In this document: one piece after another, positions 37 through 20,279 of the stretch
Numbering within the stretch: position 1 is the first letter of the stretch
Layout: each line of letters opens with the position of its first letter
From: Dehalococcoidia bacterium
Lineage (GTDB): Bacteria > Chloroflexota > Dehalococcoidia > Lucifugimonadales > JAAXIE01
Assembly (NCBI GenBank): GCA_965197805.1
Contig: OZ240229.1
Location: 1,295,823-1,359,822, forward strand
DNA length: 64,000 bases
Direction of reading: 5' to 3'
Notes under the pieces: generated by a model
The model's database searches: none
Seen by the model: the letters and a program-made list of their open reading frames with translations, nothing else
What the model was told of the DNA's origin: nothing
Program-made: the position numbers and the translations under genes

Positions 37-1467
37 GTGGCAATGGAAGCCTGGGTCGTCCGCAGCGGCGGGATAACTGAGCCGGATATCTCGGACAAGT
101 TTGAGGCCAATTCGGTTGCTGCGATAGACTACGGGTTGGGCGACGTGTCGCGCGCCCGCAGCCCCCAAGAACTAGAGAGCATACTTCGAAATGACAATCC
201 AGATTTGAGCGAGAGACAAAGGAGACAGATTGCTCTGTTCCTGTTTGACGTCGACTTAGAAGACTGGATAGTTACGCCACCGACAGGCAGGCGAGGCGAC
301 GTTTTGATAGGACGCTGTCAAGGACCCTGTGAGTACTGGCCCGAGTGGATGTCTGGAGAATACACACAGACCAGAAAGGTAACTTGGCTAAAGAGGTTGC
401 CTCGGTCCGCATTTCCAGAGAAGCTGCTAAACTCGCTCAACGGTCAGGGAACCGTATTCAAAGTCAGCAAGCATTTGGACACCATAGTGGATCTTCTCGG
501 AGAGTCCGTGGCCGATGACGTAGCTCCAATGATTAGTCCTGCGGAACCGTACGACATGTGGTCACAAGACAATGTAGATGCCCTAACCAAGGAGCTTCTT
601 TGGGAACCTCACCATCTACAAGGAATCATCGATGACCTGCAAGAGAAGCGGCAGGTAATCTTTTACGGGCCTCCGGGCACCGGCAAGACTTATGTGGCCA
701 AACGCCTCGCAGAACATTGCCTGGAATCCGGCGGCGACTTCGAGATTGTCCAATTTCATCCATCCTACTCCTACGAGGATTTCGTCGAGGGATATCGCCC
801 TCGGCTCTTTGAAGGCCAGCCTGGATTTAACCTTGTGGAAGGACCTCTGAAGCGCATCGCCAAACAGGCCGCGGAGAACCCAGAGTCCACCTTCATTCTG
901 GTGATAGACGAGCTCAACCGGGGCAACGTTGCCAAGGTTTTCGGCGAGCTGTACTTCCTGCTGGAATATCGTGGCGAGGAGGTCCGGCTCCAATATGGTG
1001 AAGGTGGAAAGCGATTTAGCCTGCCTCCCAACCTCTGGTTCATCTGCACGATGAACACCGTGGACCGGTCGATTGCACTCATGGACGCGGCCTTGCGTCG
1101 TCGGTTCTACTTCGAGCCTTTCTTTCCGGCCGAGCCGCCAATCAAGGGACTGCTCAGACGTTGGCTGGACAAGCAGGGTTGGGATAACTGGGTCGCGGAC
1201 TTGGTCGACTTGACCAACAAGAAACTGGAGCGTGATATGGGGATAGGCCCCAGCTACTTCATGGACACCGGCAGATTTCTGGACGAAGAACGCGCCCGCC
1301 GCATCTGGGAACGAGCGGTCATGCCCTACGTCGAGGAGCAGTTCTATGGAGACGACGCGAGGCTGAGACAGTTTGAATTCGACCGTCTGAAACGGGAGCT
1401 GGACGGTGCTTCTTCATTGGACGATACATCGACCATGGTAGACGATGCAGACTCTCACGCTGAGTGA
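37..1467 (+). CDS. mcrB: McrB-like AAA+ GTPase, motor subunit of a McrBC-type (type IV, modification-dependent) restriction system, with an unassigned ~200-aa N-terminal domain
   Basis: 476-aa ORF. P-loop 'FYGPPGTGKTY', McrB signature/Walker B 'FILVIDELNRGNVAKVFGELYFLLEYR', and 'CTMNTVDRS..DAALRRRF'. The McrC-like ORF overlaps its 3' end by 23 nt. Confidence 0.85.
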   Translation: MAMEAWVVRSGGITEPDISDKFEANSVAAIDYGLGDVSRARSPQELESILRNDNPDLSERQRRQIALFLFDVDLEDWIVTPPTGRRGDVLIGRCQGPCEYWPEWMSGEYTQTRKVTWLKRLPRSAFPEKLLNSLNGQGTVFKVSKHLDTIVDLLGESVADDVAPMISPAEPYDMWSQDNVDALTKELLWEPHHLQGIIDDLQEKRQVIFYGPPGTGKTYVAKRLAEHCLESGGDFEIVQFHPSYSYEDFVEGYRPRLFEGQPGFNLVEGPLKRIAKQAAENPESTFILVIDELNRGNVAKVFGELYFLLEYRGEEVRLQYGEGGKRFSLPPNLWFICTMNTVDRSIALMDAALRRRFYFEPFFPAEPPIKGLLRRWLDKQGWDNWVADLVDLTNKKLERDMGIGPSYFMDTGRFLDEERARRIWERAVMPYVEEQFYGDDARLRQFEFDRLKRELDGASSLDDTSTMVDDADSHAE

Positions 1468-2662
1468 ATACGAGCCTCAATCTGTCAATGTCCCCCTGGA
1501 CAAGGGCCAGTTGCGGACGCTGGCGGAAGCACATATCGTCGTAGCCCCGTCGACGACGGAGGGTGAGACATACACTCTCACGCCATCGTCTTATATCGGG
1601 GCGCTGAGTGTCGGCGATCTGGCCGTGCTGGTGCGCCCCAAGGTACCCATCGACAGGGTGATGTTTCTCGTCGCCTACGCACTCGATCCCCAGGACTGGC
1701 GAAAATACCCCTTCGGCCTGCAACCGGAGGCCGATGTTCTGGAAGCCATCATTCCGGCCTTCGTGCACCACACACGTCAAGCCATAAAACGTGGTCTGCT
1801 GCGGTCGTACAAGCGCGAGGAAGATGCGTTGCCAACAGTTCGTGGTCGTATTCGATTCGACGACCAGATCAACCGGCGGTACGGCATCCCACTGCCTCTG
1901 GAGGTGGTGTACGACGAGTTCACCGAGGATATCGAGGAGAACCGGTTGCTGAAAGCGGCGCTGTATCGGCTGGTCCACATGCGGGTGCGGTCGCCACAGG
2001 CCCAACGCGATGTCCGCGCCCTTCGCCCCGCGTTCAACGAGGTCAGCCTTGGCGCGTACCGCAAGGGCAGGCTGCCGATAGTGCAGTATACGCGCCTTAA
2101 CCAGCACTACCGTCCGGCGGTGGAGTTGGCGCGCCTGATCATAGAAAACTGCAGCCTCGAACTCATTCATGGGAAGGTCGTTGGGGCGTCCTTCTTGCTG
2201 AACATGAATCAGGTGTTCGAGAAGTTCATGTTCACCGCGTTGCAAGAAGCACTGGGGCTGTCTGAGAGTGAGTGGCGGAAAGACCGCCTAACATTGGACG
2301 AAGCGGACAACATCAATCTCGAGCCGGACCTCTGTTGGCGGCGGGATCAACGCTGGCTGTTCGTAGGCGACGCCAAGTACAAGCGCCTCACGCCAACCGG
2401 ATTCCCCAATGCCGACATCTACCAAATGCTGGCCTACTGCACGGCCGCCAACCTGCCATCGGGCCTGCTGGTGTACGCGAAAGGTGAGGCGGCTTCCACA
2501 CGCCACCGGGTCAAGTACGCTAACAAGACGATCGAAATAGCGTCCCTCGACCTGCAGGGCCAGCCGGAAGCGATTCTGGCGGAAGTCGGGAGTCTTGCCA
2601 AACGTGTGAGGATGCACGCGATGAGCGGGCTAGCAGTCAGCCCGGTAGGGAGCCGCCCGTAG
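1445..2662 (+). CDS. mcrC: McrC-like PD-(D/E)xK nuclease subunit
   Basis: 405-aa ORF overlapping mcrB. C-terminal nuclease core 'EPDLCW...LFVGDAKYK'. Size and position match McrBC operons. Confidence 0.8.
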   Translation: MQTLTLSEYEPQSVNVPLDKGQLRTLAEAHIVVAPSTTEGETYTLTPSSYIGALSVGDLAVLVRPKVPIDRVMFLVAYALDPQDWRKYPFGLQPEADVLEAIIPAFVHHTRQAIKRGLLRSYKREEDALPTVRGRIRFDDQINRRYGIPLPLEVVYDEFTEDIEENRLLKAALYRLVHMRVRSPQAQRDVRALRPAFNEVSLGAYRKGRLPIVQYTRLNQHYRPAVELARLIIENCSLELIHGKVVGASFLLNMNQVFEKFMFTALQEALGLSESEWRKDRLTLDEADNINLEPDLCWRRDQRWLFVGDAKYKRLTPTGFPNADIYQMLAYCTAANLPSGLLVYAKGEAASTRHRVKYANKTIEIASLDLQGQPEAILAEVGSLAKRVRMHAMSGLAVSPVGSRP

Positions 2663-4634: not shown

Positions 4635-5303
4635 TCACACTGTAGAGTGGTGGCCTACGCGAGCCCACAGGTGGGTAAGGCGGAAGGGCGAGATAGGGTA
4701 ACCGCGGACCAAGTCGTGTTCATATTCTGCGGTTGTTTCACCGTCACGGTGCCTGATGTCTAAGGGTGGAACAGACTCCGTAACAGCGATGGAGTTAATT
4801 CTAGTCAGCGCGTCATCCAGAAGAACCTTCTGCAAGTAGCCCACCATTGCGCCGCTTTGCATCCCCTTTCCATAACTATGATCTTCGTCGATGAAGCGGG
4901 CGATACCCGATCTAACGTACTCGCGGGCATATCTGGTGGCAGGATCGGTCAGCCGTTTGCACTCAACCACGAATTGCTTACAGGCATCGTTTTCATCCTC
5001 CGCGAGGTTGTCGATATAGGGCCAATAAATGTCGGGTCTTTTGAACTCTCGTGGAGTTTGGTGTAGGTCTGATGGTGCCGGCAGGTTACGACCGTCAAGA
5101 ACAGCCGGAGGAATGTGCGCTATATGCTGCCCGGCTCGATGGGACACGCGAATTAGAGTTTTGTACAATTCACGGTTGAGGCTATTCTCATCCGCATCCA
5201 GATATTGGTCGCCAAGCAACATCAAAGCTTCGCGCAGCAACTCTACGCAGGTCCTCACGTGGTCGCTCCAAAGGTCGATGGATGAGAATACTGGGCGTGT
5301 CAT
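4635..5303 (-). CDS. Small PD-(D/E)xK-type nuclease-like protein, putative restriction partner of the upstream MTase
   Basis: 222-aa ORF. 'RPDIYWP' is followed about 20 residues later by 'VVECKRL' (D...ExK core). Its start overlaps the MTase stop (ATGA at 5300-5303). Confidence 0.55.
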   Translation of the reverse strand: MTRPVFSSIDLWSDHVRTCVELLREALMLLGDQYLDADENSLNRELYKTLIRVSHRAGQHIAHIPPAVLDGRNLPAPSDLHQTPREFKRPDIYWPYIDNLAEDENDACKQFVVECKRLTDPATRYAREYVRSGIARFIDEDHSYGKGMQSGAMVGYLQKVLLDDALTRINSIAVTESVPPLDIRHRDGETTAEYEHDLVRGYPISPFRLTHLWARVGHHSTV

Positions 5304-8300
5304 AGCCTTCTGGCAGACATCAGTTGCGCGGCTGTCGCGTCAGCATCTTGCCAAGCTGCACTAGCACTCCATAAACGTCGCTCGTCACGCTTTACGATTA
5401 TGATCGATGTGTCAGTCACAGCTCGCACTGTGCCGTAACGCAACATTGATTGCGCTTGGGTTCTGTTCCATTCCACTCCGAGCCGATTCAATGCCGACCA
5501 CCAACCCTCGTCTCCCTCCTTATTCGGGAAGGGGAATCTATTCCCTTCACCGCCGAGGGTTTCAAAAACTACTGCGACCACACCTTCCACCGGCTCACGC
5601 CATATCCTCCAACTAAGTTCTCCAATAGCACGAAGCCTTTGGTTCCAAGCTCTAAGGAACACAATCAAGTACGGGTCCAGCCCTTCTTTACTGTGGGGGT
5701 CCAGGTCAGCTTCGGTACCTCGCACCGCGGCGATGTGAGCAACCGATTGAGTTGCGTCTGTACTCTGACTTACCCAGAAATCGGCCACTAGGCTACGCTC
5801 TGAGTCTGTGAGTTCGAAAAGGTCAGCCACCGCTTCGTCAACATGAGCCATATGAGCGGCAATACCATGTCTTGCGACTTGGTCACCGAGCGTGTTCATG
5901 TCGCGCAAGTCACCGACGGCCGTCCGAATCTTGCGAGTGGTTACGTCCCAGACTGCCGGCATCCGTGTTGGAAGTTCGAGTAGGTCCCCTGAGCGTACCT
6001 CGTCTGCCCAGGTTCCCCATGATCCAGACACCATATATAACCAATAACGCCCCAAGGACGACACAAGGGTCCCAAGAATGATCTCAGCCTGCCATGGTTG
6101 CAGATGGGTGAGAGAAATCCCGTATGTCGTATGGCGAAATGCAAAGGGTTCTGTTTCAAGCCTGGCATGTGGTCCAAATCCAGGGGACACCCCCCTGCGT
6201 ATTAGCAAGCGTTGTCCCCTGAACAGACGCTCGTCCGGCACAAATTTAACGCGCGATGGGACAGATTCAAACCACTCATCCTTGAGGGCTCCCCAAGAGT
6301 CGAATTTAACGAGGCTCCTCAAGTCGCGCAGTGTCATCGACGGCGAATGTCCTGTTGAGTCGTCCCCTCTCTGAAAACCGTAACCACAAAGCTTCTTGGA
6401 CTCCGTCCAATCGCGCAATTGGTCTTCGACCGCAAGGCGGGCCAAAAAAGCGTCATCACGCGGAGATCCGGCAGTATACGTTTTCCACAAATAGTCACGG
6501 GTACGTAATGAGGTTTGCACCACCATTTGCCGGTCCATACGCGCAAGTGCGGATGACCCACGTCTTCCGCGAGGGACGGGGCGAGCCGTTTCGTAGACGA
6601 CCATCCCGCTTCTTTGGTCTAGTGCACGACGAAACCGGACCAACATAAACGGAGCGACCCCAGTCTTAAAGAAATCTCTCCGGACATGGCTGAAGTTGAC
6701 TACGTGTTCAAGTTTCGCCTCTCCAAGCCACTGTTCACGGAATCTGCGAGACGTGGGCCTAGTATTTAGCAGGGCTTTCGCACTTATTAAGAGGGCAGCC
6801 ACCCCACCGGTCGCCAAGAGGTCTAAGGCTCGCCATAAGAAGAGCTGCGACGGACTTCGGTCTCCAATGGTACGATTGAGCCGAGAAGCCCACTGCTCTG
6901 CCTTAGACTTACCGCCTTTAAGTTCACTCCATGGCGGATTCCCAACTACAACGCCAAAGCCCTCTGTCGTCCAAGGCAATCCGTCCTGTTGCCCGGTATA
7001 ATGTTCGTTGTTCGAGGTATGTTCTCCCTGCCTGGGCGAGAAGGCGTCACCCACGACAAGCGGTGCCATATTCCGTCCCTGTTCTCCGCGCTGGTGGATT
7101 AGCCTAGGAAGAGGCCCGGCTTTCAGTATATCGTTTGGCTGTTGGTAATTCAGAAACGCGATGTATAGGCTGAAGGCAGCTAGCCTAATCGCACCTTCGT
7201 CGATGTCGCACCCTGCAATACGCTGCAATAGTAACTCTTGGAGACGGCCCCTAGTTAGGGGTCGTTCCAGTTTCAACATCTCGTGCCTTACTATTCGACG
7301 ATACGCTTCGACGAGAAAAATCCCTGACCCACATGCAGGGTCGCAGACGGTGGGCTCTTGCTCAAGGGTGTTGTCATCAAGTACGTCAGCAATAACGGAC
7401 CCAACCAATTCAGGAGGGGTATAATAGGCATCAGCTAACTTTTTGGTCACCTCCTCATGATGGAACAGTTCGTACATATTGGAAACAAGATCGGTAGGAA
7501 CAACACTAAAGTCATACGCCCAAAGGAAGAGCCTTTCTTGGTTAGCACTTATGTCCCCTTTCAGTAGGCTCTGGAGGAGGCATAGTTGTTCCTCAGTGAC
7601 AGCTTCGCGTTCGTCATTTTCGGCGATGAATAGGTCGCGGTTGAAGTGCCCAGCGAGTTGGTCAAATAGGGCGTAAGTAAGTTCTTTGCTCGCCAAGAAT
7701 CGAATGAAGTTACTTGTCGGACCAAAGTCTACTGGAGCCTCATTGACACCGACTCGATTGAGTGGTTCCGGAAGCTTCGACGCTACTTCATCAAAGTATG
7801 CATCGGTGAGAATGGTTCGGTCTTCGAGGTAACGGACAAGAATGGCACGCTCAATAAGGGTATGAGAGAGCCTACGAGTTAACCCTGCCGATACAAGGGC
7901 TGTAGTAGCCGAGCGGACATCACGCAACAGCTGTTGGTCGGCCCGTCCGGTTTGATTACCCATTTGAGGATGTTCAAACGTCACGCCCGATTCTAGGCGA
8001 GACCTGTGGAAACGAGAGAGCTGTTCTGCAACATCCGCCGCTCTTGTCACGACCTCTAGAGGCGTCAAAGGCCTCCTACTAACGCCGGGCGTCGTCGGAA
8101 GACTCGCGAGCGAATAGACACGAAGCTCGTCTCCAACTGCCAAGAACAGATATCGAGGCCGGGCAAGACTCCATGCTCGACGGTAGCAGTGGAGCACATC
8201 GCGTTCATCCGATTCGGCTGGTAGAGACGTAAAGACGAGAACCGGATCATCGTTCAGAAAAAAGACTCTTTCCGCCTTGACACGTGCGGCGAGCAACAGC

Positions 8301-8449
8301 CAGTCACCTACTTCGCGCCATCTAGACCGGTTGGAGTCAAAGGACGGGGCTTCCGTGGCTTCAAGTAACATGCCGCTGACTAAGTCAAGGTCGGCGTACA
8401 CACGATCAAGGAGTGGAGATGGTGGATAGGTGGAGGGCATTCTAGTCAT
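5300..8449 (-). CDS. Large gamma-class N6-adenine DNA methyltransferase (type IIG / Eco57I-PglX-like) with unassigned N- and C-terminal regions
   Basis: 1049-aa ORF with motif X 'AYYTPPELV', motif I 'DPACGSGIFLVEAY' and motif IV 'VVVGNPPWSEL'. The upstream helical region has 'FNRDLF'. The ~480-aa C-terminus is TRD-like. Confidence 0.8.
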   Translation of the reverse strand: MTRMPSTYPPSPLLDRVYADLDLVSGMLLEATEAPSFDSNRSRWREVGDWLLLAARVKAERVFFLNDDPVLVFTSLPAESDERDVLHCYRRAWSLARPRYLFLAVGDELRVYSLASLPTTPGVSRRPLTPLEVVTRAADVAEQLSRFHRSRLESGVTFEHPQMGNQTGRADQQLLRDVRSATTALVSAGLTRRLSHTLIERAILVRYLEDRTILTDAYFDEVASKLPEPLNRVGVNEAPVDFGPTSNFIRFLASKELTYALFDQLAGHFNRDLFIAENDEREAVTEEQLCLLQSLLKGDISANQERLFLWAYDFSVVPTDLVSNMYELFHHEEVTKKLADAYYTPPELVGSVIADVLDDNTLEQEPTVCDPACGSGIFLVEAYRRIVRHEMLKLERPLTRGRLQELLLQRIAGCDIDEGAIRLAAFSLYIAFLNYQQPNDILKAGPLPRLIHQRGEQGRNMAPLVVGDAFSPRQGEHTSNNEHYTGQQDGLPWTTEGFGVVVGNPPWSELKGGKSKAEQWASRLNRTIGDRSPSQLFLWRALDLLATGGVAALLISAKALLNTRPTSRRFREQWLGEAKLEHVVNFSHVRRDFFKTGVAPFMLVRFRRALDQRSGMVVYETARPVPRGRRGSSALARMDRQMVVQTSLRTRDYLWKTYTAGSPRDDAFLARLAVEDQLRDWTESKKLCGYGFQRGDDSTGHSPSMTLRDLRSLVKFDSWGALKDEWFESVPSRVKFVPDERLFRGQRLLIRRGVSPGFGPHARLETEPFAFRHTTYGISLTHLQPWQAEIILGTLVSSLGRYWLYMVSGSWGTWADEVRSGDLLELPTRMPAVWDVTTRKIRTAVGDLRDMNTLGDQVARHGIAAHMAHVDEAVADLFELTDSERSLVADFWVSQSTDATQSVAHIAAVRGTEADLDPHSKEGLDPYLIVFLRAWNQRLRAIGELSWRIWREPVEGVVAVVFETLGGEGNRFPFPNKEGDEGWWSALNRLGVEWNRTQAQSMLRYGTVRAVTDTSIIIVKRDERRLWSASAAWQDADATAAQLMSARRL

Positions 8450-8782
8450 TCACGGCTTCGCGGTTGTAGGGTCCGCAGCAGTGTGAATACGACTTTGCGG
8501 TCATATTCGGGAAGAACGCAAGGTCAAACGCCGAGCACACATTTAGTAGACACCCCGTACGGTGTCATCTGTGACTCGGGTATCTGCCGTGGCCTTGGGG
8601 GTGGTCCACGAGGGCCGCAAGCATCAGCTCCCCAATAGCTCGTTCCAAGCGCTCGGCTATCGTACCGTCCGCTTGACCATAAGCAATAATTGTAGTCTAA
8701 GCGTGGTGCTTATTGGGGAAGCCTATCACAGGGTTACGCCACTGTCGACCTGCGGAAACCGCCAGCGCCCCAGCTCCCCCGC

Positions 8783-9034
8783 CTACGCTACCGCCCGGAC
8801 CATCCAGCGCATCATCGCGGATTGTCCCGCCTTCACCCGCATAAGCACTGTAGCTAGAAAGGCCAAGCAAGACATTTGGGCGTGGAGGGTGATTTGACGC
8901 AACCCTCGCAGGCGGTGTCGCTCCAACCGGCGCGATTCCTTCACCGATTTGAAGACCCTCTCAATGGTGGCCAGGCGTGGATACGGCCGCATTGGTGCGC
9001 CAGAGGCTCCACACGTGGTGTGCGTCGCCATCAC
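8783..9034 (-). pseudogene. C-terminal remnant of an IS4/IS5-type DDE transposase
   Basis: 'ATIERVFKSVKESRRLERHRLRGLRQITLHAQMSCLAFLATVL' is the typical end of the DDE_Tnp_1 domain. No intact upstream ORF; the surrounding frames are broken. Confidence 0.6.
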
Positions 9035-9698
9035 GTGTGGAGAGTTCCGGGCACCGACCCGTTCTCTTATGTCGGGGACAGCACGGGCCAGCAGTTCCCG
9101 TAGGCCATGGTGCCCCTAATGCGGCTTGGCCTCTCCCAACGAATTGGCTATTGTGGCGAGAGGCTAGTGCCACTTTGGCGGTTTTGCCCCTGACTCCTAC
9201 GTTGGGTCCTCTTTCCAAAGCACACCCCGTGGCCGTAGCAATTAGTTGGACGGTTGTGCGGGTCTCAGGGAATTAGCGATGAATGTATTGCCTGATAAGA
9301 GCCCTATGAAACGCTGTTCGTTTAGGAAATAGAGAAGCTCCTTGAGGTCGCGGCGAGTGTTCGGCAAAGCAATCTTGTTGCTCTCCTATAACATTAGGTG
9401 AGCGGACAGCGTCGCAGGACAGGGCCTATTCCTACCGAGCACGCCGAGGGCCGGCCGCTTCAGGGATGACCGGGACCGTTCCTGCTGGTACGTCGTCTAC
9501 CAGAGTTATCGGATGAGGTTGTTGGCCGGTGCGGGAACGGCCAGCAGTGGAGGCGTCAGCGCTGTCTCCATCGCGCCATACCCGTAGTGTCGTTCCAGAA
9601 AGGCATCACGGTAGCAGGTCTTGCTACGACATTTATGGGGTATCTACTCTAACCAGTGCGGGGCGGGGCCCGGTTCACGCTGCGCAGCATGACCCCTC

Positions 9699-12600
9699 TC
9701 ACGTCGGTAGCACTACCTGATAGCAGACGACGCCAAGATCGTCTTCGGTGATGGGATCAGGAGCTCGTGGTGCCTCCACCGGCCGTAGGCCGAACCTCGC
9801 GACAACTTCGATGATGCGGCGGGAGCAGTCCGCCACAGTGATCCCGCCGCCTTCGTACTCCCGGCGGAGGTCCGACAACTCACGGCGCACGAGGTTGTTC
9901 CTGCCGGTGGACAGGGCCTGGTCTCCCTCGTCATATTCTTTACCAGTAGGAGCGTCCGGTAAGCGCAGCACGTCCAACGCCCAACGTTGACTAGCAGGCA
10001 GGGAGGCAAACCTTGTCTCGGGGTCGAGGAGCGCGTTGTGAGTCGTGCAGATGTCATCGGCGGCCACCGCAAAGAGGTGCTCAAGGTCAAGCCCCTCTGG
10101 GAGAGGGCATCCGGCCTGCTGTTGGGGGTCTATAAGCCGAACCATCGGCAAGTCTTCGCGGTACAGTATTTCCCCTGATTGGGACACAGTGCGCCAATAG
10201 CGCTCATCCCTGCGTGTCCGACAGGCGAAGAATACCGCAGGCTCCGCCAGTGTGGACGACCGTTGCACGAAAGCGGCCCCGATTCCCCAAGGCAGACCTT
10301 GGAGCCTGCTCACTTCACCTTCCTCGGCGGCGCGCCGGAGATGGGAGCGGAAAAGCTCACCCGCGAATGCCGAGCCCCCAACGCCCTCCTGTTCGTCCAA
10401 CAGCGCAGCATCCCCTTTGGAAAGACGTTCCACAAACGTGCTCAGGTCTGCGTAAACCTGCGACTCCATCTCTACGTCGGCCAATACAGGGGTCTCCATG
10501 CCCACTGAGGCGTTCGCAGCCATGATCTTGGACTGGAGCTTGGCTTCCAGCTTGAGCAGCCTGTCAAGGTCACCCTGTTTAGGGAGCAGGGTGTAGAGAT
10601 ATGCGGTGTCGTGGGGGCTGCGCAGGCGAATTATGCGACCATTACGCTGCACCACTCGCTGAGGGTTCCAAGGCATATCGAACGAGAGCACTGCTTGAGC
10701 CTGTTGTAGGTTCTGGCCCTCAGACAGTATGTCGGTGCTGATAATGACGTCCACTTCACCGCCATCTGGTCGAAATCCCGGCTCGTCCCGCACGGACTCT
10801 GGGCAGAACCGCTCAAGCTCTCTGGTGCGGGCGTCCGCACTGGTCTCCGAGCCGATGACCACCGTCCAATCACGGTTGTCCAGCACTTCCGGTTGCCTTT
10901 CGATTTGCTCTTTCAGATAAGTTGCTGTGTCCTGAAATGCCGTGAACACGGCGACCTTCTGAGACGGCGTTACGGCCATGACGTCCTTCAGCGTATCCAG
11001 CTTGGGGTCGGGGCTGTGCCTCAGGCTTTCCAACCGCGCCGACAGGGTAGCTAGGCTATCCCGGTCACTCTGCAAGTCAGACAAGAACTGGTCGTCGAAT
11101 CTGTTGGCGGGAATGCCTCCCTCCGAGCCAGCCAGTGCCTCGTCGATCAGGTCAGCGCTGAGGAACGTGTCGTCATCGGCATCGCCGACCAAGTCGCGGA
11201 TGACTTCCGGCGGGGGGACCACTCCCCGCTCTGTGATGACATGGAGCATCACGTCATTCGCATTTCTCATCCTGTTCACAGTTTGCAGAGCCGCGTACCA
11301 TGACGACTCGAAGCGTTTTAACAGCTGTGACTGCATCAGCCCGGCAAGCGCATCTTCTGAAGCGGATACGCCCTCATTGTCTAGCCTATAGGCAGATAAG
11401 CGGTACCTCGCCATTGTCAGACCGTCGACTCCATCGTAGATAAATTGCGCGATTCCAGGGTGTGCGCTGTCCAAGTCGTAGCGGCGCTCGTGCAACTCTG
11501 GCTCTGGGAACTTTACAGGCGTCCCGTCCACGAATCGCTCGTTACGGTACCGTTCCTTGACGAAGGCCCGGTCCCGTCGCACTGTCAGAGCGTCGATTAG
11601 GGGGAACAGCTTCGCCTCCGACAGATTCTCTGACTTCGACGCCCCGGCCTCAGCAAAGAGTGTCCGCAGACTGGTAATCTTCAGCGGCTCGCCGTTGAAG
11701 GCACTATCGTGCCTACCGAACAGGAGGAAGAGGTTATGCAGGTCCCAGAGGGAGTTGTTGACCGGAGTCGCAGTGAGGAGCAGTAGCTTCTTCGTAGTGC
11801 CTCCCATCAGCCGGTCCAGAGCTGCGTACCAGGTGTTGTTTATATTGCGGTAGGCGTGGGCCTCATCAATGATGACGAACCGGTACACGTCCTTGTTCAC
11901 CGGAAGCACCCGTCGCCCGCCGTTGGAAGCCAGTTGGCAGTCCTGCGCCAACTCCTGATAGGACACGACGGTTCCAGGCAGGTTTTCCTCGGCTAGGCGC
12001 TGCTCCCACAGGCGGTCCCGAAGCTGGGCCGGGGAGATTACCAGCACGTGCTGACCCAGGTCGCGGGTGTGCTCCCGGATCAACTGCACGCCGATCTCAG
12101 TCTTGCCCATGCCCACGCCGTCGGCATACAGGACGCCGCCGTAGCGGTCCAGAATCCGTTTTGCCCGCGCCAACCCATCTCGCTGGAAAGCGGTTAGGGC
12201 GTGTAGGTCAGGTATCGGCATTTCGTCATCCAGTTCGTCTCCATAGAGTTCCAGTAGTGCTCGTAAGAAGACGGTCTGAGGGTCGCTCTCCAAGGCAGGT
12301 GGTCGCAGCAGTTCCAACAGTTCTTCGCGGAAGTCCAGGGCATCGTCCCATAGGCGCCGGTGCCAGCCCAACGCCATGCCAACAACATTGGGTTGGTAGT
12401 GCACCATGCCCAGTTCGAGATTGGCGACGAGTCCACCTTGCGTGAGGTTGGCCGACGACACCAGGGCCGCCCCAGGTCCAATCGTAGATCCGCCGTCATT
12501 CAGTTGACCGATGACGTAAGCCTTGCCGTGGAGGAAACGTCGAATGTAACGACGTACTGCAACAGCGTCGGATTCAAAGAAGCGGGTCACCCGGTCCAAG

Positions 12601-12932
12601 ACAGCCCGCCGAAAGGCTGGAAAGGCAGAGAAGTCCCTCTCACGACGCAGAGCTGACACGGACTGGTCGAAACGGTCGGCCACGGTTTCCCCCGGCGAGC
12701 CAGCTAATCCCTCTGGCACCGCTCCGACCAACAGGCGAGTAGGTTGTTCCCTCCCCGCGGCTATCTTGGCTAGCGCGTCCAGCCCCTCAAGACCAATATA
12801 GCCTGTGGCCACATTCAGCGGCGCGGAGTAGTACTCTGCCAGCCATACCAACGCTTGGTGGTGGTTACCGTAGTCAACGTTGTCCACCAGTTCATAGGAG
12901 CCGTGTTGCGAGGCGTTGCTGCTGGCCGTCAT
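9699..12932 (-). CDS. PLD-family nuclease domain fused to an SNF2-family helicase/translocase
   Basis: 1077-aa ORF. PLD motif 'FLHGKAYVIG...LVSSANLTQGG' at aa 133-167. SNF2 motifs 'DGVGMGKT' (aa 271-278), 'IIDEAHAYRN' (aa 354-363), 'LLLTATPVNN' and 'FDMPWNPQRVVQRNGRIIRLRS'. The ~280-aa C-terminus is unassigned. Confidence 0.85.
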   Translation of the reverse strand: MTASSNASQHGSYELVDNVDYGNHHQALVWLAEYYSAPLNVATGYIGLEGLDALAKIAAGREQPTRLLVGAVPEGLAGSPGETVADRFDQSVSALRRERDFSAFPAFRRAVLDRVTRFFESDAVAVRRYIRRFLHGKAYVIGQLNDGGSTIGPGAALVSSANLTQGGLVANLELGMVHYQPNVVGMALGWHRRLWDDALDFREELLELLRPPALESDPQTVFLRALLELYGDELDDEMPIPDLHALTAFQRDGLARAKRILDRYGGVLYADGVGMGKTEIGVQLIREHTRDLGQHVLVISPAQLRDRLWEQRLAEENLPGTVVSYQELAQDCQLASNGGRRVLPVNKDVYRFVIIDEAHAYRNINNTWYAALDRLMGGTTKKLLLLTATPVNNSLWDLHNLFLLFGRHDSAFNGEPLKITSLRTLFAEAGASKSENLSEAKLFPLIDALTVRRDRAFVKERYRNERFVDGTPVKFPEPELHERRYDLDSAHPGIAQFIYDGVDGLTMARYRLSAYRLDNEGVSASEDALAGLMQSQLLKRFESSWYAALQTVNRMRNANDVMLHVITERGVVPPPEVIRDLVGDADDDTFLSADLIDEALAGSEGGIPANRFDDQFLSDLQSDRDSLATLSARLESLRHSPDPKLDTLKDVMAVTPSQKVAVFTAFQDTATYLKEQIERQPEVLDNRDWTVVIGSETSADARTRELERFCPESVRDEPGFRPDGGEVDVIISTDILSEGQNLQQAQAVLSFDMPWNPQRVVQRNGRIIRLRSPHDTAYLYTLLPKQGDLDRLLKLEAKLQSKIMAANASVGMETPVLADVEMESQVYADLSTFVERLSKGDAALLDEQEGVGGSAFAGELFRSHLRRAAEEGEVSRLQGLPWGIGAAFVQRSSTLAEPAVFFACRTRRDERYWRTVSQSGEILYREDLPMVRLIDPQQQAGCPLPEGLDLEHLFAVAADDICTTHNALLDPETRFASLPASQRWALDVLRLPDAPTGKEYDEGDQALSTGRNNLVRRELSDLRREYEGGGITVADCSRRIIEVVARFGLRPVEAPRAPDPITEDDLGVVCYQVVLPT

Positions 12933-12947
12933 ATCTCCCTCTTTACC

Positions 12948-15900
12948 TTAAAGGTCCTCGAACTTCTCCACCACCTGATTGCGGTAGGCCGGGCCAACGG
13001 CGTCCTCAGTGAAGTCTGTGAAGATGAAACGCAATTCATCCTCCGCAAGACCGTAGGCTCTCGCCACCAGCGCGTCTATCTCTGCTCGCATATCGTTGCG
13101 CTGGACGTCGGTCAGCGGGCCATATTCGACTTCGGCCCCAATTGAAAATTCGTAGAATCGTTCGTCGACGCAGGACAATCGCGCCGCAAGTCGGCCAATG
13201 CGGACCCATGGAGTGTTGTCGGGAGGGGGGAAGGTAAGCATATTCAGAATGAAATGGTTAAAGTTCATCTCGACGTATCTACGGGCTAACCAATCGAATG
13301 TGACTGAATTGATCACACCCAATACGGCTGCTTGTGGCAGTGCATTCCATCCACTGAATACCAGATAGGGAGCCGCATTCGTAAGAGGTGTTCGGGGAGG
13401 CACTATGCATGCATTCATGGTGCGCGAGTTCGTTCGGTTGGTGACGTGCCCATAAGCAATTCGGCAGTGGTTTATTGGATGAGTGTCAGGATTTGAGAGG
13501 AAAGTGGACGGGAATATGCTCTTGAAAACACGGGAACGCATTCGCTTATTGTGTACAAAGTCTAAAACCTCATCCCACACACAGTATCCAGCAGGTTCAT
13601 TGCCATGCGGATCGTACTGGTCAAATGAACGACCCTTCCATACTGCGACACCTTGAGAATGGGAGAACAGGGCGCGCTGCTGCGTCTCATGTAATTCCGC
13701 ATAGGGAACTAGATGAGACGCAGCAGCGCGCCCTGTTGCGGTCGTTGTACTTTGGGGATTCTGTAGACAGTCGAACTGAACTCCCCCCCGTATCTTCGTC
13801 AGCAGGTTAGAATGTATCTGGCTTGGTAGGAGAGGCACCACTTTGGCACTTCCCAAAGAGGATGCCGGGATACTAACGCCCTGACTACGGGTGACTTCTT
13901 GGAACTCTCTGAGGCTTGATGATGGCCCCGTGATTCGGAAGGTGGTTAACTCGTAAGGCGTGCTACGCTGGCCGGTCAGTAGCGCCACCGTATAACGAGG
14001 CTCCATATCGAACGCCCAGCGCTTTGCATTCAGCAGATAGTCCACCTTGCTCACTGTTGTCTGCCCAAATAGCCATTCCCTGAATCCCCTAGCTCCCTCC
14101 GCAAGGAACGCTGTTCTGGGTAGCACCACGCCCAGACGCCCTTCCTGCCTGACGAGGTGGCTGTACCGCTCGCAGAAAAGCTGATAAAGGTCTGTGTCGC
14201 CCACGCCTTGCAGCTGATATCCTCCACTATGGGAAAAGAACGCCCGGATGTTTGCTAGACGTACTTGCTCCGCTTCAAACTCCCCACGCCAGTTGGGGTT
14301 CTCTTCATCAAGTGCTGCAATACGTGCGCGCCTGTCCGTCAAATTGCTTATACCTCGCAGTCCGGGTTCCCGCAATAAGTAGAAGCGCAGTTCTTCGATG
14401 GTGACTTCGTTCCACGGGGGATTACCGACGACCACGTCGAACCCCGGGCGCTCACGGTGGAAGACGTTGGGAAACTCCAGTGGCCAGTGAAAGAATCGGT
14501 ACTGGGCAGCGGTGCCCGAGGCCTCGGCCATTACAGTTGCTATCTCAGTGGTCCTGCCGTCGTCACGCGCGACGATCGCGTCAGCATGGGTTTCCAGTGT
14601 GTGACGGGCACCTTCCAGACCTAGAGGTTCCGCCGCCCACAGGTCGAAGACGGACCGCAGACCTGCAGTGGCTCCGTGAAGGTCTGCGCCCATCTCCTCG
14701 GAGCGTTTCACCTCGTCGGGGGTTCGGTCTGGGTTCTCAGCCAGCGTACGCTGCAGATCGGCCGCACGCGTCATCGCATCAGCGACGGCCTGACCGGTGA
14801 ACATCGGGCTATCATTTGCGCCCACCACCAATGGGTCGGCCACTCCAATGAGGGCGTCGCCACACTTGAGATTGCTGCCCAGATAGGAGAGAGCTAGACC
14901 AGGGACGAAGGAAGCCAACCACAGAGTGACGTTTGCCACCTCCACTGCCATTGGTGAAAGGTCAACGCCGTAGATACAACGCTTGAGGATGAGCCGCCGA
15001 AGCAGTTCTCCGTCCTCAGGTGGCCGCGAGGCCAGCCCGTTTTCCTGGCTCAATTCGCTGAGTTGCTGGGCAATACTAGGTAGTCCGCCGACTTCCGCGA
15101 GGAAAATCCCCATTCGGTCAGCTATGATGCCCAAGGCAGCTGTTAAGAAGTGGGCACTACCCATTGCAGGGTCCACAATTGAAAAATCGAACAGCCTGCG
15201 GGTTGCTTCTTTGGGGTTTCGGACAGCCACATTCCTGATTTCTTCCAAGTGTTCATCAAGAGCGGGAAGTAGCGAATGGTTGAGGAGATGGTCTACGAAC
15301 TCACGCCTTGTGTAAAATACGCCCCCAGCTTTGCGTCCACCCGCCTCGGCTTGGTAGTAGAGCTGTGCTTTAGTCACCTCCGGCTGCTCCCCGGCGCGCG
15401 CAGGCCTAAACACGTCCTGCTTGGGATCGTAGGCTAAATCTTCGGGAGCGCGCGTAAGGCGCAGGGTCAACAACGCTTCGTAAATGGCTCCAAGGTGGCC
15501 AATCTGCAGGCCAGCATAGTCCAAGCCCGGAGCGTCAGGCTTGTCGGTTTCATAGGCGATGGCCATCAATGCCGGGACCAGATACACATCAGCGACCTCA
15601 GCCCGTTCCAGCAGATCGCTACCCGGGAAGCCGGCGGCAGCGAAAAGGCTGCCGTTGTAGGCTGGCACCGCGGCAGACCGGTCTCCCGTCCGCACCATCC
15701 GCACCAGCGTACGGAGCCGGTCCCATCGCTGTGTAGCTCTCCGGCTCAAAGACGACTGAGCCAGTCGGGAATCTTCGGCAAGCTGGAGGGCGCTATGTGG
15801 CTGGTATGCTGCCGATCCAATAGGCAAGTAACCGCGGGCTTCTGTGTGCAACAGGAACATGAAACGGAATACCAAGGTAAGTGCAGCCTCTTCTATCTGC

Positions 15901-16937
15901 CGGAGCTGCCCTCGGTCGCTTAAGTCAGCGCCCTGTGTTTCAAGCCACTCTCCAAGCCCTCGTGCTATGTTCGGCAGTGCATCCTGGATGAGCCTCTCTT
16001 CTAGACCCTTGCGTAGCTCCTCTCCGAAGTACTTAACCTCATTGACCCATGTAGTTAGCCACCCGTTCTCCTTCAGCGATTCCGGTGCGAGAAGGCCAAG
16101 GTAGAGGCGGTCTTTCCGCTCCAACTCACCCAGGTCTATCTCCACATGCTGCCCAGTCGCAGGTCCTACCGGGGGTCTCCGCTGAAATAAACGATATCGG
16201 CCTTCTGCAGCTAACACACCCCAATACGCTCCGTGTTGGGCAGAGTCTGCCAATACCATCCCCTCGGGCAGTTCGCCGTTGTCCGTGAGGCGACTGAACT
16301 GATTCGCGTCGCGGTGAAGGTGGAGTACGGCAACTGGAGTTTTTTCGTATCTCAGTAAGTAGCCGCGTTGGGGCAACTGCTCGACCTGGTAGCCCATGCC
16401 CTGGAAGAGAGCACGCCAGTCCATACCGGCAGTAGGTGTTATGCCTTCGATGGCACGGGACAGTCGCTGCTCGTTAATGGGCCAGCGTAGGCGGTCCCGC
16501 AAGAAATGAGGAGTAAGGAGGTCCTTGACCCGGAGGCCGGGGACCACTGCCTCCTCAAGACGGCTGAACTCCCGCGCCAAGAACGACGCGGCTTCACGGG
16601 TTGCCAAGCCTCGGCTCGTCTCCAACAGGCCAAGGACTCGATGGGCAGGCAGCTCGCGAACTGGGCGGGCATCCTGTGGCCCAGCGACGCGTACTTTAGC
16701 TTCCTGGTCTGAAGGAGCCAGCAAGACGACTGGATGGGGCTGACGGCCTTTCCTAGCTTCCCACAATCTGCGCAGATCAGCATCGCTCGCTGCGTGATCG
16801 GCCCACAGGAGGTGGTAGGACGACGTTTCCCAAGCTCTCGCTGAAGACCCCGCCTGAGACGTCCAGCTTCGGCCTTGGCCGTAAGCAGCTTCCAAGCGTG
16901 CAATCAACTGGCTGGTGCTAGGTGATTTCATAGCCAT
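12948..16937 (-). CDS. PglX / type IIG-like gamma-class N6-adenine DNA methyltransferase
   Basis: 1329-aa ORF with 'YNGSLF' (aa 427-432), 'RKAGGVFYTRREFV', motif I 'DPAMGSAHFL' (aa 589-598) and motif IV 'VVVGNPPWNEV'. 15-nt gap with a GAGGGAG SD before the helicase gene. Confidence 0.8.
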   Translation of the reverse strand: MAMKSPSTSQLIARLEAAYGQGRSWTSQAGSSARAWETSSYHLLWADHAASDADLRRLWEARKGRQPHPVVLLAPSDQEAKVRVAGPQDARPVRELPAHRVLGLLETSRGLATREAASFLAREFSRLEEAVVPGLRVKDLLTPHFLRDRLRWPINEQRLSRAIEGITPTAGMDWRALFQGMGYQVEQLPQRGYLLRYEKTPVAVLHLHRDANQFSRLTDNGELPEGMVLADSAQHGAYWGVLAAEGRYRLFQRRPPVGPATGQHVEIDLGELERKDRLYLGLLAPESLKENGWLTTWVNEVKYFGEELRKGLEERLIQDALPNIARGLGEWLETQGADLSDRGQLRQIEEAALTLVFRFMFLLHTEARGYLPIGSAAYQPHSALQLAEDSRLAQSSLSRRATQRWDRLRTLVRMVRTGDRSAAVPAYNGSLFAAAGFPGSDLLERAEVADVYLVPALMAIAYETDKPDAPGLDYAGLQIGHLGAIYEALLTLRLTRAPEDLAYDPKQDVFRPARAGEQPEVTKAQLYYQAEAGGRKAGGVFYTRREFVDHLLNHSLLPALDEHLEEIRNVAVRNPKEATRRLFDFSIVDPAMGSAHFLTAALGIIADRMGIFLAEVGGLPSIAQQLSELSQENGLASRPPEDGELLRRLILKRCIYGVDLSPMAVEVANVTLWLASFVPGLALSYLGSNLKCGDALIGVADPLVVGANDSPMFTGQAVADAMTRAADLQRTLAENPDRTPDEVKRSEEMGADLHGATAGLRSVFDLWAAEPLGLEGARHTLETHADAIVARDDGRTTEIATVMAEASGTAAQYRFFHWPLEFPNVFHRERPGFDVVVGNPPWNEVTIEELRFYLLREPGLRGISNLTDRRARIAALDEENPNWRGEFEAEQVRLANIRAFFSHSGGYQLQGVGDTDLYQLFCERYSHLVRQEGRLGVVLPRTAFLAEGARGFREWLFGQTTVSKVDYLLNAKRWAFDMEPRYTVALLTGQRSTPYELTTFRITGPSSSLREFQEVTRSQGVSIPASSLGSAKVVPLLPSQIHSNLLTKIRGGVQFDCLQNPQSTTTATGRAAASHLVPYAELHETQQRALFSHSQGVAVWKGRSFDQYDPHGNEPAGYCVWDEVLDFVHNKRMRSRVFKSIFPSTFLSNPDTHPINHCRIAYGHVTNRTNSRTMNACIVPPRTPLTNAAPYLVFSGWNALPQAAVLGVINSVTFDWLARRYVEMNFNHFILNMLTFPPPDNTPWVRIGRLAARLSCVDERFYEFSIGAEVEYGPLTDVQRNDMRAEIDALVARAYGLAEDELRFIFTDFTEDAVGPAYRNQVVEKFEDL

Positions 16938-17370: not shown

Positions 17371-18633
17371 ATGGTGGAAGCGGCCACCGAACTTGACCTC
17401 CACGGTTCCGACGATGGCCGTCGGCAGCGGGGCCTTGCGATTGCAGCCATCGCTCGCATCACCAAGACCAAGCTGGGCTACAAGGTCCCCTCTCAATCCG
17501 GCGAGGGTTCTTATGCGGTGAACCTCGCTGACGACGACCCCTACTGCAGTTGCCCAGACTTTGAGAAGCGACAGGTGTCTTGCAAGCATATCTACGCAGT
17601 ACGGTACTTCATCCAGCGCGAGGGGCAACAATCTAGCGCTGTGGTGCACTCTCAGAGCCTCCGGCCGACCTATCGGCAAGACTGGCCCGCATATAATGCG
17701 GCACAGGCCCACGAGGGTGAGCACTTCCATACTCTCCTTCGGGAACTCTGCGACACTGTGCCACAGCCCCTACAGGCAGGTAAAGGACGCCCACGGCTGC
17801 CTTTGGCCGATGTGGTATTCGGCATCGGCCTCAAGGTCTACTCAACGTTCTCCGGGCGTCGTGCCATGTCGAACATCCGCACTGCTGAGGCAAACGGTCT
17901 CCTAGATCACGCGCCCTCATTCACCAGCGTGTTCCGATACTTGGAGAATCCTGCCCTGACGCCTGTGCTCAAGTCCTTGATTCAGCAGAGCTCCCTGGCC
18001 CTCACGTCCGTCGAGACCGAATTTGCCGTGGACTCCAGCGGGTTCGCCACCACGACCTATCACCGATGGTTTGACCACAAGTGGGGCAAGGAGATCAAGG
18101 AGGCGGAGTTCGTTAAGGCGCATCTGATCTGCGGAGTTACTACCAACATCGTGACGGCTGCCGAGGCTTCTGTAACTCGAGACAACGATGCTCCTTACCT
18201 GGCCCCGTTCGTGCAGACCACTGCGCAACACTTCATCGTCAATGAAGTCTCCGCCGACAAGGCCTATCTGACGAAACGGAACCTACACGCGGTCCAAGAG
18301 GTAGGAGGTACTGCCTACATCCCATTTAAGTCCAATTCCGTCGCTAGTAACCCCAAGGTGAAGCGGGACCCTCTTTGGACCAAGATGTATCACTACTATC
18401 ATCTCAACCGGGCTGAGTTCTTACAGCACTACCACAAAAGGTCCAACGTGGAAACGACGTTCTCCATGGTCAAAGCGAAGTTTGGCTCCGCAGTCCGTGC
18501 CAAGACTCCGGTCGCACAGATCAACGAGGTCTTGACAAAGGTTCTGTGTCACAATGTCTGCGTGGTTATACAGTCCGCCTACGAGCTGGGGATTAACCCG
18601 GTGTTCTCTCCAACAATGCCCGAGTCGGCCTAG
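17371..18633 (+). CDS. SWIM zinc-finger + DDE (IS4/IS5-type) transposase, paralogue A
   Basis: 420-aa ORF. SWIM motif 'CSCPDFEKRQVSCKHIYAV'. DDE candidates 'FAVDSSGF', 'VSADKAYL' and 'YHKRSNVETTFSMVKAKFG'. Confidence 0.8.
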   Translation: MVEAATELDLHGSDDGRRQRGLAIAAIARITKTKLGYKVPSQSGEGSYAVNLADDDPYCSCPDFEKRQVSCKHIYAVRYFIQREGQQSSAVVHSQSLRPTYRQDWPAYNAAQAHEGEHFHTLLRELCDTVPQPLQAGKGRPRLPLADVVFGIGLKVYSTFSGRRAMSNIRTAEANGLLDHAPSFTSVFRYLENPALTPVLKSLIQQSSLALTSVETEFAVDSSGFATTTYHRWFDHKWGKEIKEAEFVKAHLICGVTTNIVTAAEASVTRDNDAPYLAPFVQTTAQHFIVNEVSADKAYLTKRNLHAVQEVGGTAYIPFKSNSVASNPKVKRDPLWTKMYHYYHLNRAEFLQHYHKRSNVETTFSMVKAKFGSAVRAKTPVAQINEVLTKVLCHNVCVVIQSAYELGINPVFSPTMPESA

Positions 18634-18968
18634 GACCGGGTACCCCTTTGCGCCCTGCGCCTCGAAGGCCACAGATGCCTTATGGTCCCCGACTTCCATA
18701 CCTTCTCGCTCCCACGGGCAGCACATGCATCCTTAAGCAGCTTATCTCCGTCGCTTTGTGACCCTGCACGTTCCGCTGCCTCTGGATCCGGCCAAGTCTC
18801 TAGGTCTGCGACATTCGGTAGCAACCAGCGTGGCAACCGCAATCTATTGTGTCTTCAGACAATCAGGTGCACGTCCCATAAATCCCCCGAAAGTATAGAC
18901 CATCACGGTTGGCACAACGACACGCTACACCGTTAGAGTATGAGGATGTTCCTTAAGTTGGGAGCCGA

Positions 18969-20279
18969 TTGATGCTCGAAGTGGTCACGGCCCTAAGCCC
19001 CGACGATCCCGACGACGGTGACACTGGCCGCCAATCGCGGGGCCTTGCCATCGCAGCCATAGCTCAGATCAGCAAGAACAAGCTGGGATACAAAGTGCCG
19101 TCACAATCTGGCAACGGCACTTACGTCGTAAATGTCTCCGATGAAGACCCGTATTGTAGTTGTCCAGATTTCGAGAAGCGACTAGCTAGATGCAAACACG
19201 TCTATGCCGTGGAGTTCCTGATACAGCGTGAGGAACGGATAGACGGTACAGTCATGGACACTAGAGCTGTCCGCGTTACTTACGGACAAGACTGGCCCGC
19301 CTACAATGCCGCGCAGGCCCACGAGGCCGAGCACTTCGTGACACTACTGCGTGACCTTTGTGACGCGGTGGTGATACAGCCAACGCAGCAGGGCAAGGGC
19401 AGACCGCGCCTGCCCTTGGGTGACGTGGTACTCGGTATTGCTCTGAAGGTCTATTCCACGTTCCCGGGGCGCCGCGCGATGTCGAATATCCGTACTGCCA
19501 AGGCCAACGGGTTGATGGATCATGTGCCCTCGTTTACTAGCGTGGCCCGTTACATTGAGAACCCTGCCCTTACTCCGGTCCTAAAATCCCTGATTGAACA
19601 GAGTGCCCTACCGCTCTCATCAGTGGAAGTCGATTTTGCCGTGGACTCCAGTGCGTTTTCCACCACCACGTATCAGCGATGGTATGACCACAAATGGGGC
19701 AAGACGATTAAGGAGTCCCAATGGGTGAAGGCCCACCTTATTGCTGGGGTCAAGACCAACATCGTGACCTCCGCAGAGGCGACTGTCACCCAAGCCCACG
19801 ATAGTCAGTACTGGCCAGCATTCGTGGAGACCACGGCGCAAAACTTCAAACTAAACGAGGTTTCCGGGGACAAGGCCTACCTAAGTCGAAAGAACCTGTG
19901 GGTGGTGCAAGCGCTCGGCGGAACAGCCTACATCCCCTTCAAGACCAACTCCGTGGCCCACAACTCCAAGGCAGCGGGGGATCACCTTTGGCTCAGGATG
20001 TTCCACTACTACAATTACAACCGAGAGGAGTTTCTGCAGCACTACCATAAACGATCAAACGTTGAGGCTACGTTTCACATGATCAAGGCAAAGTTTGGCG
20101 CACGAGTACGGTCCAAGACTCCGACGGCCCAGGTCAATGAAGTGCTGACCAAGATTCTATGCCATAATATCTGCGTCTTGATTCAGTCGGTCTACGAACT
20201 GGGAATCACTCCGGTTTTCAGCCCACCAAAAATTTTTGGAACAGAAGGGCCAGCTGTTCCAAAAATGGCGTGGGAATAG
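18969..20279 (+). CDS. SWIM zinc-finger + DDE transposase, paralogue B
   Basis: 436-aa ORF (TTG at 18969, ATG at 18972). 'CSCPDFEKRLARCKHVYAV', 'FAVDSSAF', 'VSGDKAYL' and 'YHKRSNVEATFHMIKAKFG'. The 3' end runs into the right-end repeats. Confidence 0.8.
   Translation: MMLEVVTALSPDDPDDGDTGRQSRGLAIAAIAQISKNKLGYKVPSQSGNGTYVVNVSDEDPYCSCPDFEKRLARCKHVYAVEFLIQREERIDGTVMDTRAVRVTYGQDWPAYNAAQAHEAEHFVTLLRDLCDAVVIQPTQQGKGRPRLPLGDVVLGIALKVYSTFPGRRAMSNIRTAKANGLMDHVPSFTSVARYIENPALTPVLKSLIEQSALPLSSVEVDFAVDSSAFSTTTYQRWYDHKWGKTIKESQWVKAHLIAGVKTNIVTSAEATVTQAHDSQYWPAFVETTAQNFKLNEVSGDKAYLSRKNLWVVQALGGTAYIPFKTNSVAHNSKAAGDHLWLRMFHYYNYNREEFLQHYHKRSNVEATFHMIKAKFGARVRSKTPTAQVNEVLTKILCHNICVLIQSVYELGITPVFSPPKIFGTEGPAVPKMAWE

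Follow-up and report, generated by a model that had tools for sequence, protein, structure and literature searches.

A gamma-class methyltransferase and a separate small PD-(D/E)xK protein: a probable two-subunit restriction-modification system of Type IIG ancestry

Which protein would cut the DNA when a methyltransferase (MTase) of Type IIG size shows no recognizable nuclease of its own? The question is raised by two adjacent genes in a 64,000-nucleotide (nt) stretch of contig OZ240229.1 from a Dehalococcoidia bacterium (Chloroflexota; assembly GCA_965197805.1), hereafter the window, which encode an MTase of 1049 amino acids (aa) and a protein of 222 aa. An initial annotation, made from the letters of the DNA, had proposed that the two form a restriction-modification (RM) pair in which a small nuclease stands apart from the MTase instead of being fused to it. 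Our analysis supports this proposal, and neither the fold, nor the co-occurrence of the genes, nor the conservation of the catalytic residues speaks against it. With a probability of roughly 0.68, we conclude that the pair is a two-subunit RM system of Type IIG ancestry in the split layout R + gamma-M~S, in which a restriction subunit (R) stands beside a gamma-class modification subunit (M) that carries the specificity domain (S) in the same chain.

Linkage of the gene pair across genomes

The gene for the 222-aa protein, our proposed R subunit, occupies window positions 4635-5303, and the gene for the 1049-aa MTase positions 5300-8449, both on the minus strand and both with an ATG start in the list of open reading frames (ORFs). 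On the minus strand the two genes meet at GGCTATGACACG: the small gene's start codon ATG (5303-5301) runs into the stop codon TGA of the large gene (5302-5300), with four bases shared by the genes, which bears out the ATGA overlap at 5300-5303 (minus strand) that the initial annotation had taken as a sign of translational coupling. The overlap is no local accident, because 40 of 71 homologous loci preserve a 4-bp ATGA or GTGA overlap; the two genes lie within -14 to +17 nt of each other in about 64 of these 71.

Homologous loci were collected from both sides of the pair, a genome search with the alignment of the 222-aa protein giving 72 loci and a search of metagenome contigs with the MTase alignment giving 80. 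The genome loci are spread over Chloroflexota, Solirubrobacterales, Planctomycetota, Acidobacteriota, Verrucomicrobiota, Bacteroidota, cyanobacteria (Microcystis, Anabaenopsis, Dolichospermum, Cronbergia and Laspinema) and alpha-proteobacteria (Mesorhizobium, Sinorhizobium, Sphingomonas, Sphingopyxis, Methylobacterium and Xanthobacter). An MTase homologue, full-length or decayed, lies directly upstream on the same strand in 68 of the 72 genome loci found through the small protein, and in the remaining four the small gene sits within about 200 nt of a contig end. In the other direction, the small gene follows directly downstream, within a few tens of bases, in 73 of the 75 MTase metagenome loci that have at least 300 nt of downstream sequence, the last two offering less than 480 nt of room. 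The co-occurrence that the proposed pairing calls for is found on both sides.

The flanks have no third gene in common: even their largest ORF family is present in just 7 of 149 loci, all of them syntenic Microcystis copies. Since no other gene is conserved there, the module consists of exactly two genes, and the pair is an obligate, self-contained two-gene module. We also considered a larger DISARM- or BREX-like system that would include the adjacent helicase gene (9699-12932) and the gene for a second, 1329-aa MTase (12948-16937), and rejected it for want of co-occurrence in 77 loci, among which the neighbour genes meet the pair in one lone, distant coincidence (locus L070).

The gene pair also stands out from its surroundings in composition. 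Its GC content is 53.5%, below the 59.9% of the helicase gene and the 58.5% of the window and in the lowest 2.3% among stretches of equal size, and its GC content at third codon positions (GC3) is 52-58%, against 69.5% for the helicase gene; the earlier impression, formed by eye, of a block more AT-rich than that gene was correct. Between the helicase and MTase genes lies a 1.25-kb spacer (8450-9698) without a long ORF, which holds the remnant of a DDE transposase C-terminus (8783-9034, minus strand; Pfam DDE_Tnp_1_6, 5e-5, and DDE_Tnp_1, 3e-4, both below the gathering scores). The remnant suggests an old insertion boundary that marks the edge of the module. With a GC content 5 points under that of the window and the transposase remnant at its border, the module shows signs of horizontal acquisition.

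The small protein, the methyltransferase and target recognition

The 222-aa protein carries PDIYW at residues 90-94 and, 22 residues on, VVECK at residues 112-116, as first noticed with a spacing of about 20 residues; the conserved D...(D/E)-x-K motif of the PD-(D/E)xK superfamily, on adjacent strands, is present. Searches of Pfam, PADLOC, NCBIfam and PDB sequences, with the single sequence and with profiles, returned no match to the protein, and the first three of these databases gave no P-loop or helicase match. Its family is large all the same: a word-indexed search found 86 clusters at 90% identity, and an exhaustive profile search found 997 representatives of 50%-identity clusters at E<=1e-3, 229 of them at E<=1e-30. 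The best 150 of the 997 are all stand-alone proteins of 135-293 aa. The plasmid and phage collections hold no homologue, one query having matched only through a spurious C-terminal ORF extension, and hhalign detects no homology between the profile of the 222-aa protein and the McrC encoded in this window.

Conservation was counted over 116 non-redundant family members. E39, D91, E114, K116, Y129, G133 and R136 are invariant in all 116, and P90 is kept in 115. The catalytic D/E/K residues whose loss in homologues would have spoken against a nuclease, namely D91 (codon 5031-5033), E114 (4962-4964) and K116 (4956-4958, all on the minus strand), are conserved without exception. The AlphaFold (AF2) model of the protein is confident (predicted local distance difference test, pLDDT, 87.3; predicted template modelling score, pTM, 0.85). 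In it, D91 starts strand 92-97 and E114-x-K116 lies within strand 108-118, after which come a helix and a strand, and this order of elements is the order expected of a PD-(D/E)xK core. The best named Foldseek matches of the model are weak, being McrC (E 0.013, probability 0.85) and an Mrr-domain protein (E 0.016, probability 0.90); lower matches include arenavirus and Mus81 nucleases, VRR-NUC and phage proteins labelled 'PD-(D/E)XK'. The fold claimed in the initial annotation is thus probable on the strength of the model and its core order, and the structural matches leave it at that grade.

The partner protein is a gamma-class N6-adenine MTase, as first annotated and now confirmed by its motifs and by Pfam (N6_Mtase 4e-16, Eco57I 8e-16, MmeI_Mtase 2e-9). 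The three motifs quoted at the outset, AYYTPPELV (341-349), DPACGSGIFLVEAY (370-383) and VVVGNPPWSEL (500-510), are all found in the translation, and the G-S of motif I (DPACGSG) and the NPPW are invariant in 116 of 116 members. Pfam and profiles place the gamma-class catalytic domain, with YTP, DPACGSG and NPPW, at residues 331-640 (6530-7459, minus strand, as for all parts of this gene). Profile matches of this core are to solved adenine-specific DNA methyltransferases, BsaXI, BrxX, 7LO5 (2e-6) and MmeI (6e-4). PADLOC Type IIG models match the protein at 5e-45 (the models range from about 1e-45 to 1e-37), and the match to model PDLC03623 covers residues 139-698 only (profile 120-652), with the nuclease part of the model unmatched. 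A helical linker with conserved RYLEDR and WAYDF motifs, delimited by PDLC03623 and by conservation, precedes the catalytic domain at residues 136-330 (7460-8044), and a conserved C-terminal region with a KRNERRLW...AAREDAEAT motif closes the chain at residues 801-1049 (5303-6049).

Between the catalytic domain and the C-terminal region, at about residues 641-800 (6050-6529), lies the target-recognition domain (TRD), indicated by TaqI_C specificity-domain matches, which were obtained in 5 of 37 MTase members, and placed by mosaic pairs of close relatives in which about residues 671-800 are swappable. In two Microcystis loci, L062 (Microcystis ichthyoblabe FBCC-A1114) and L108, the MTases are 97-100% identical in all 30-residue bins except at about residues 671-800 (window numbering), where identity is 40-67%, and their 222-aa homologues are 97.9% identical; the same TRD mosaic is seen in L139 versus L148 and in L109 versus L127. 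Type I, Type III and MmeI-family enzymes are known to exchange their TRDs as cassettes, and the mosaic at about 671-800 bears the signature of such exchange. The swap signal is confined to close relatives, and the idea of a TRD that is hypervariable throughout the family was dropped, identity in the TRD region being only modestly lower than elsewhere (0.31-0.43 versus 0.45-0.61). Because a nuclease with a matching specificity of its own could not tolerate a TRD swap, the 222-aa nuclease probably does not recognise a sequence by itself and is targeted by the MTase-TRD protein. In another comparison of Microcystis-type loci, L062 versus L112, the MTases are at least 97% identical outside the TRD and the small proteins only 71%, and the nuclease gene may also be exchanged between modules.

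The same observations bear on whether the pair is instead a classical Type II system, in which the 222-aa protein would be an independent sequence-specific endonuclease acting at the same site as the MTase, and the size of the MTase would be incidental. An M-then-R order with overlapping stop and start is common in Type II systems, the small protein has the full PD-(D/E)xK signature, and its 222 aa fall, as general knowledge has it, within the size range of Type IIP enzymes. Yet its family can be aligned over the full length across many phyla at 28-68% identity, and a TRD swap beside a 98% identical nuclease of this kind would kill the cell if the two TRDs read different sites. Several loci, moreover, carry a frame-shifted MTase gene beside an intact small ORF, which is weak evidence against an endonuclease of this kind and would suit a nuclease that does no harm when its partner is missing; both genes are decayed in Sinorhizobium chiapasense (L072) and in L077. 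Taken with the swaps, we consider a classical Type II pair unlikely.

A role other than restriction would make the module a toxin-antitoxin-like addiction cassette, or an abortive-infection module linked to methylation; in the latter variant, a non-specific nuclease effector would be set free once the MTase detects unmodified DNA or a phage inhibits it. Such a role would suit a module that is mobile, patchily distributed and compositionally foreign, that sits among abortive-infection and defence genes, and whose nuclease is apparently without a specificity of its own. A diversifying TRD, however, is a hallmark of self/non-self discrimination that an addiction module does not need, and there is no evidence of any trigger. 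Addiction behaviour is also a known side-property of RM systems, and this explanation overlaps with a two-subunit RM system; as an account in its own right we find it very unlikely.

The N-terminal domain and a proposed division of labour

Residues 1-135 of the MTase (8045-8449) form an alpha/beta domain at the position where Type IIG enzymes carry their nuclease. The AlphaFold model of residues 1-160 (pLDDT 83.4) runs in the order helix-strand-helix-strand-strand-helix-strand-strand, and its Foldseek matches in the PDB, individually weak (E 0.08-1), are mostly to restriction-endonuclease-like PD-(D/E)xK folds; they include 9Y1L (a putative restriction endonuclease domain protein), BpuSI (3S1S) and DrdV (7LO5), and further EcoR124I HsdR, Hjc, RecU and tRNA-splicing endonucleases. 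The conserved positions are W50, F64, P69, F73, W93, P98, F102, L114 and P118, and residues 1-135 hold no invariant D, E, K or H in the 116 non-redundant homologues. Position 60 is E or D in 108 of the 116, position 68 holds D (67 members), N (39), E (7), H (2) or S (1), and at position 70, the place expected for the Lys of a D-x-K, all members have V, I or L. No match to MmeI_N or to any other nuclease family of Pfam was obtained in the 37-member MTase sample.

The initial annotation had seen no nuclease motif in the first ~330 aa of this one protein, and for residues 1-135 the observation holds across the family. Its suggestion of a search for a cryptic N-terminal nuclease, carried out here by AlphaFold and Foldseek, yields a domain that is weakly nuclease-fold-like and has no conserved catalytic residues. 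What the model, the matches and the conservation describe is probably a degenerate, catalytically dead restriction-endonuclease-like domain, rather than an absent nuclease. That the 222-aa protein was born by fission or duplication of this domain was considered and rejected, hhalign of the two profiles showing no homology.

Least probable of all is a conventional single-chain Type IIG enzyme that cuts through an unconventional N-terminal site and keeps the 222-aa protein as an accessory (for instance to nick the second strand, to regulate or to repair), for although the PADLOC Type IIG models match the 1049-aa protein and its N-terminus has a nuclease-like fold with an acidic position 60, the PADLOC match stays outside the nuclease part, residues 1-135 contain no invariant charged residue, with a hydrophobic residue in place of the Lys and Asn common at position 68, and no nuclease domain of Pfam appears in the 37 members.

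In the two-subunit system of Type IIG ancestry that we prefer, the 1049-aa protein would read the recognition sequence through its own TRD and methylate the host DNA, its N-terminal nuclease-like domain having lost its catalytic residues. The DNA-cleaving site would be supplied in trans by the 222-aa PD-(D/E)xK protein as the sole active nuclease centre, produced in a fixed ratio if the ATGA overlap couples its translation to that of the MTase. We expect that this small protein would be recruited or licensed by an MTase-TRD protein bound at an unmethylated site, and would then cut nearby; the conserved C-terminal region of the MTase (801-1049) is a candidate docking surface for it. We infer the nuclease activity, the two-protein complex, the control by methylation state, the position of cleavage and the anti-phage role.

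Some points weigh against this scheme. Each small protein has a single catalytic site, too few for cutting both strands, and a dimer or two complexes must be assumed. No fusion of the 222-aa nuclease family to an MTase occurs among the best 150 of its 997 representatives, and among these no fused protein links the nuclease to the methylase. Both versions of a swapped TRD could read one and the same sequence, and the specificity argument would then lose weight. Most of the loci with a frame-shifted MTase are metagenome-assembled genomes, where the frameshifts may be sequencing errors.

A further step, which we put forward tentatively and regard as rather doubtful, would give the N-terminal domain a purpose: the dead nuclease fold may dock the 222-aa nuclease, so that an asymmetric pair of one active and one inactive partner is assembled or unlocked only at an unmethylated site. 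If so, the module would be a natural 'programmable reader plus detachable cutter' that acquires new specificities by TRD exchange alone, and its layout would be a living intermediate between Type I and Type III systems, with their separate R, and Type IIG enzymes, with their fused R. Such docking would resemble active/inactive nuclease pairs of the Mus81-Eme1 kind, in which a pseudo-nuclease scaffolds its active partner, although there is no homology by hhalign between the 222-aa protein and the MTase N-terminal domain.

Known systems, genomic surroundings and significance

Type IIG enzymes (BpuSI, Eco57I, MmeI, DrdV) are the closest comparison. The pair shares with them a gamma-class N6-adenine MTase of about 1000 aa with motifs of the Eco57I and MmeI_Mtase type, a TaqI_C-like TRD in the same chain (with no separate S gene conserved in 149 loci), a helical linker that matches the PADLOC Type IIG models, TRD swaps like those of the MmeI family and an N-terminal alpha/beta domain in the place of the nuclease. 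It differs in that this domain lacks conserved catalytic residues, a separate, invariably linked 222-aa PD-(D/E)xK protein being found instead, and in that similarity of the 1049-aa protein to solved Type IIG enzymes is limited to the MTase core. As judged from sequence, membership in Type IIG proper fails on the defining feature, a fused active nuclease.

Type III systems (Mod and Res) likewise have two genes, a methylase subunit that carries the TRD and a nuclease subunit without a specificity of its own, and in them loss of the methylase protein also abolishes restriction. Unlike the present partner, which at 222 aa has neither ATPase motifs nor a motor, Res is a large helicase-nuclease of superfamily 2 (SF2), and Mod, as is generally known, is a beta-class MTase, whereas the 1049-aa protein is gamma-class. 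Type I (HsdM/HsdS/HsdR) and Type IIB enzymes (BcgI and BsaXI, RM + S) resemble the pair in their gamma-class MTases and in a modular restriction activity that can be split over subunits; the pair, in contrast, has no separate S subunit or translocase, and its split runs between R and M~S, versus RM/S or R-motor/M. PglX/BrxX of BREX is also a large gamma-class MTase with its own TRD and no working nuclease, and the 1049-aa protein gives weak profile matches to it in NCBIfam and the PDB. The NCBIfam BREX MTase scores, however, are 25-39 bits against cut-offs of 400-900 (best 38.7 against 400), and neither PglZ nor BrxC nor any other neighbour is conserved in 149 loci. The pair thus falls outside Type III for want of the motor, outside Type I for want of the S subunit and outside BREX for want of the partner genes.

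In the literature, Type I enzymes are described as using a supplementary R/translocase subunit, and the organisations set out comprise fused R~M~S proteins, some accompanied by extra MTases, and BcgI in its RM + S form; an R + M~S split is not mentioned in that part of the source (PMC3874165). The evolutionary models of Bower and colleagues connect the types through a fusion of the HsdR nuclease domain with HsdM (PMC6158711). No account of an R + M~S layout that retains a vestigial cis-domain came to light in open-access full texts, and a prior listing in REBASE is possible.

The module lies in what looks like a defence island, formed by the first 26 kb of the window, which also encode McrBC, an AIPR protein and further MTases. 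An McrBC-type system (37-2662, plus strand) consists of overlapping genes for a 476-aa AAA_5 GTPase protein, whose N-terminal domain matches the PADLOC PDC-S02 models, and a 405-aa McrC (Pfam McrBC 1e-54). A separate two-gene system (9699-16937, minus strand) is made up of the 1329-aa protein, a Type IIG/DrmMI-like gamma MTase (12948-16937; PADLOC PDLC03620, 1e-105), and, after a 15-nt gap, a 1077-aa PLD(HKD)+SNF2 helicase that is DrmD-like (9699-12932; PADLOC C3a139 'HKD+Snf2', 4e-43). Tandem paralogous SWIM + DDE_Tnp_1 transposases of 420 and 436 aa follow (17371-20279, plus strand). Farther along (23586-26307), the gene for a 588-aa AIPR abortive-infection protein (1e-34) converges, with a 26-nt overlap, on that for a 326-aa N6_N4_Mtase methylase (4e-41).

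Some homologous loci have neighbours of their own. In L001 and L002, a HEPN_RES_NTD1 + RES gene stands directly after the pair (11014-12192) and a PycTM gene just upstream, and a 438-aa gene with the same SWIM + DDE_Tnp_1 domains as the transposases of the window lies about 8 kb away (18911-20227). In L004, a Planctomycetaceae metagenome-assembled genome, a 97-aa ORF with a weak MmeI_N Pfam match lies just upstream of the MTase of the pair (6339-6632); this ORF may be a piece of another Type IIG gene, or it may be related to the module.

The pair looks like an apparently undescribed two-protein layout of a familiar RM enzyme, present at about 150 loci in many bacterial phyla. Annotation pipelines will call the 1049-aa protein a fused Type IIG enzyme, given a PADLOC match of about 1e-45, and will leave the candidate nuclease unnamed; giving the 222-aa family a name would put right the labels of RM genes in Chloroflexota, Actinomycetota, Planctomycetota, Acidobacteriota, cyanobacteria (Microcystis, Anabaenopsis, Dolichospermum) and alpha-proteobacteria. 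Editing of the TRD has served to re-engineer MmeI-family enzymes, and a system with a separate 25-kDa cutter subunit could supply tool builders with a reader that only methylates and a nuclease that can be detached. In reviews, the R domain of Type IIG enzymes is permanently fused, and an R + gamma-M~S layout with a vestigial cis-nuclease would fill a gap in the proposed evolutionary series of Type I, IIB and IIG. The pair thus matters for the annotation and classification of RM systems, while the understanding of restriction-modification itself is unchanged.

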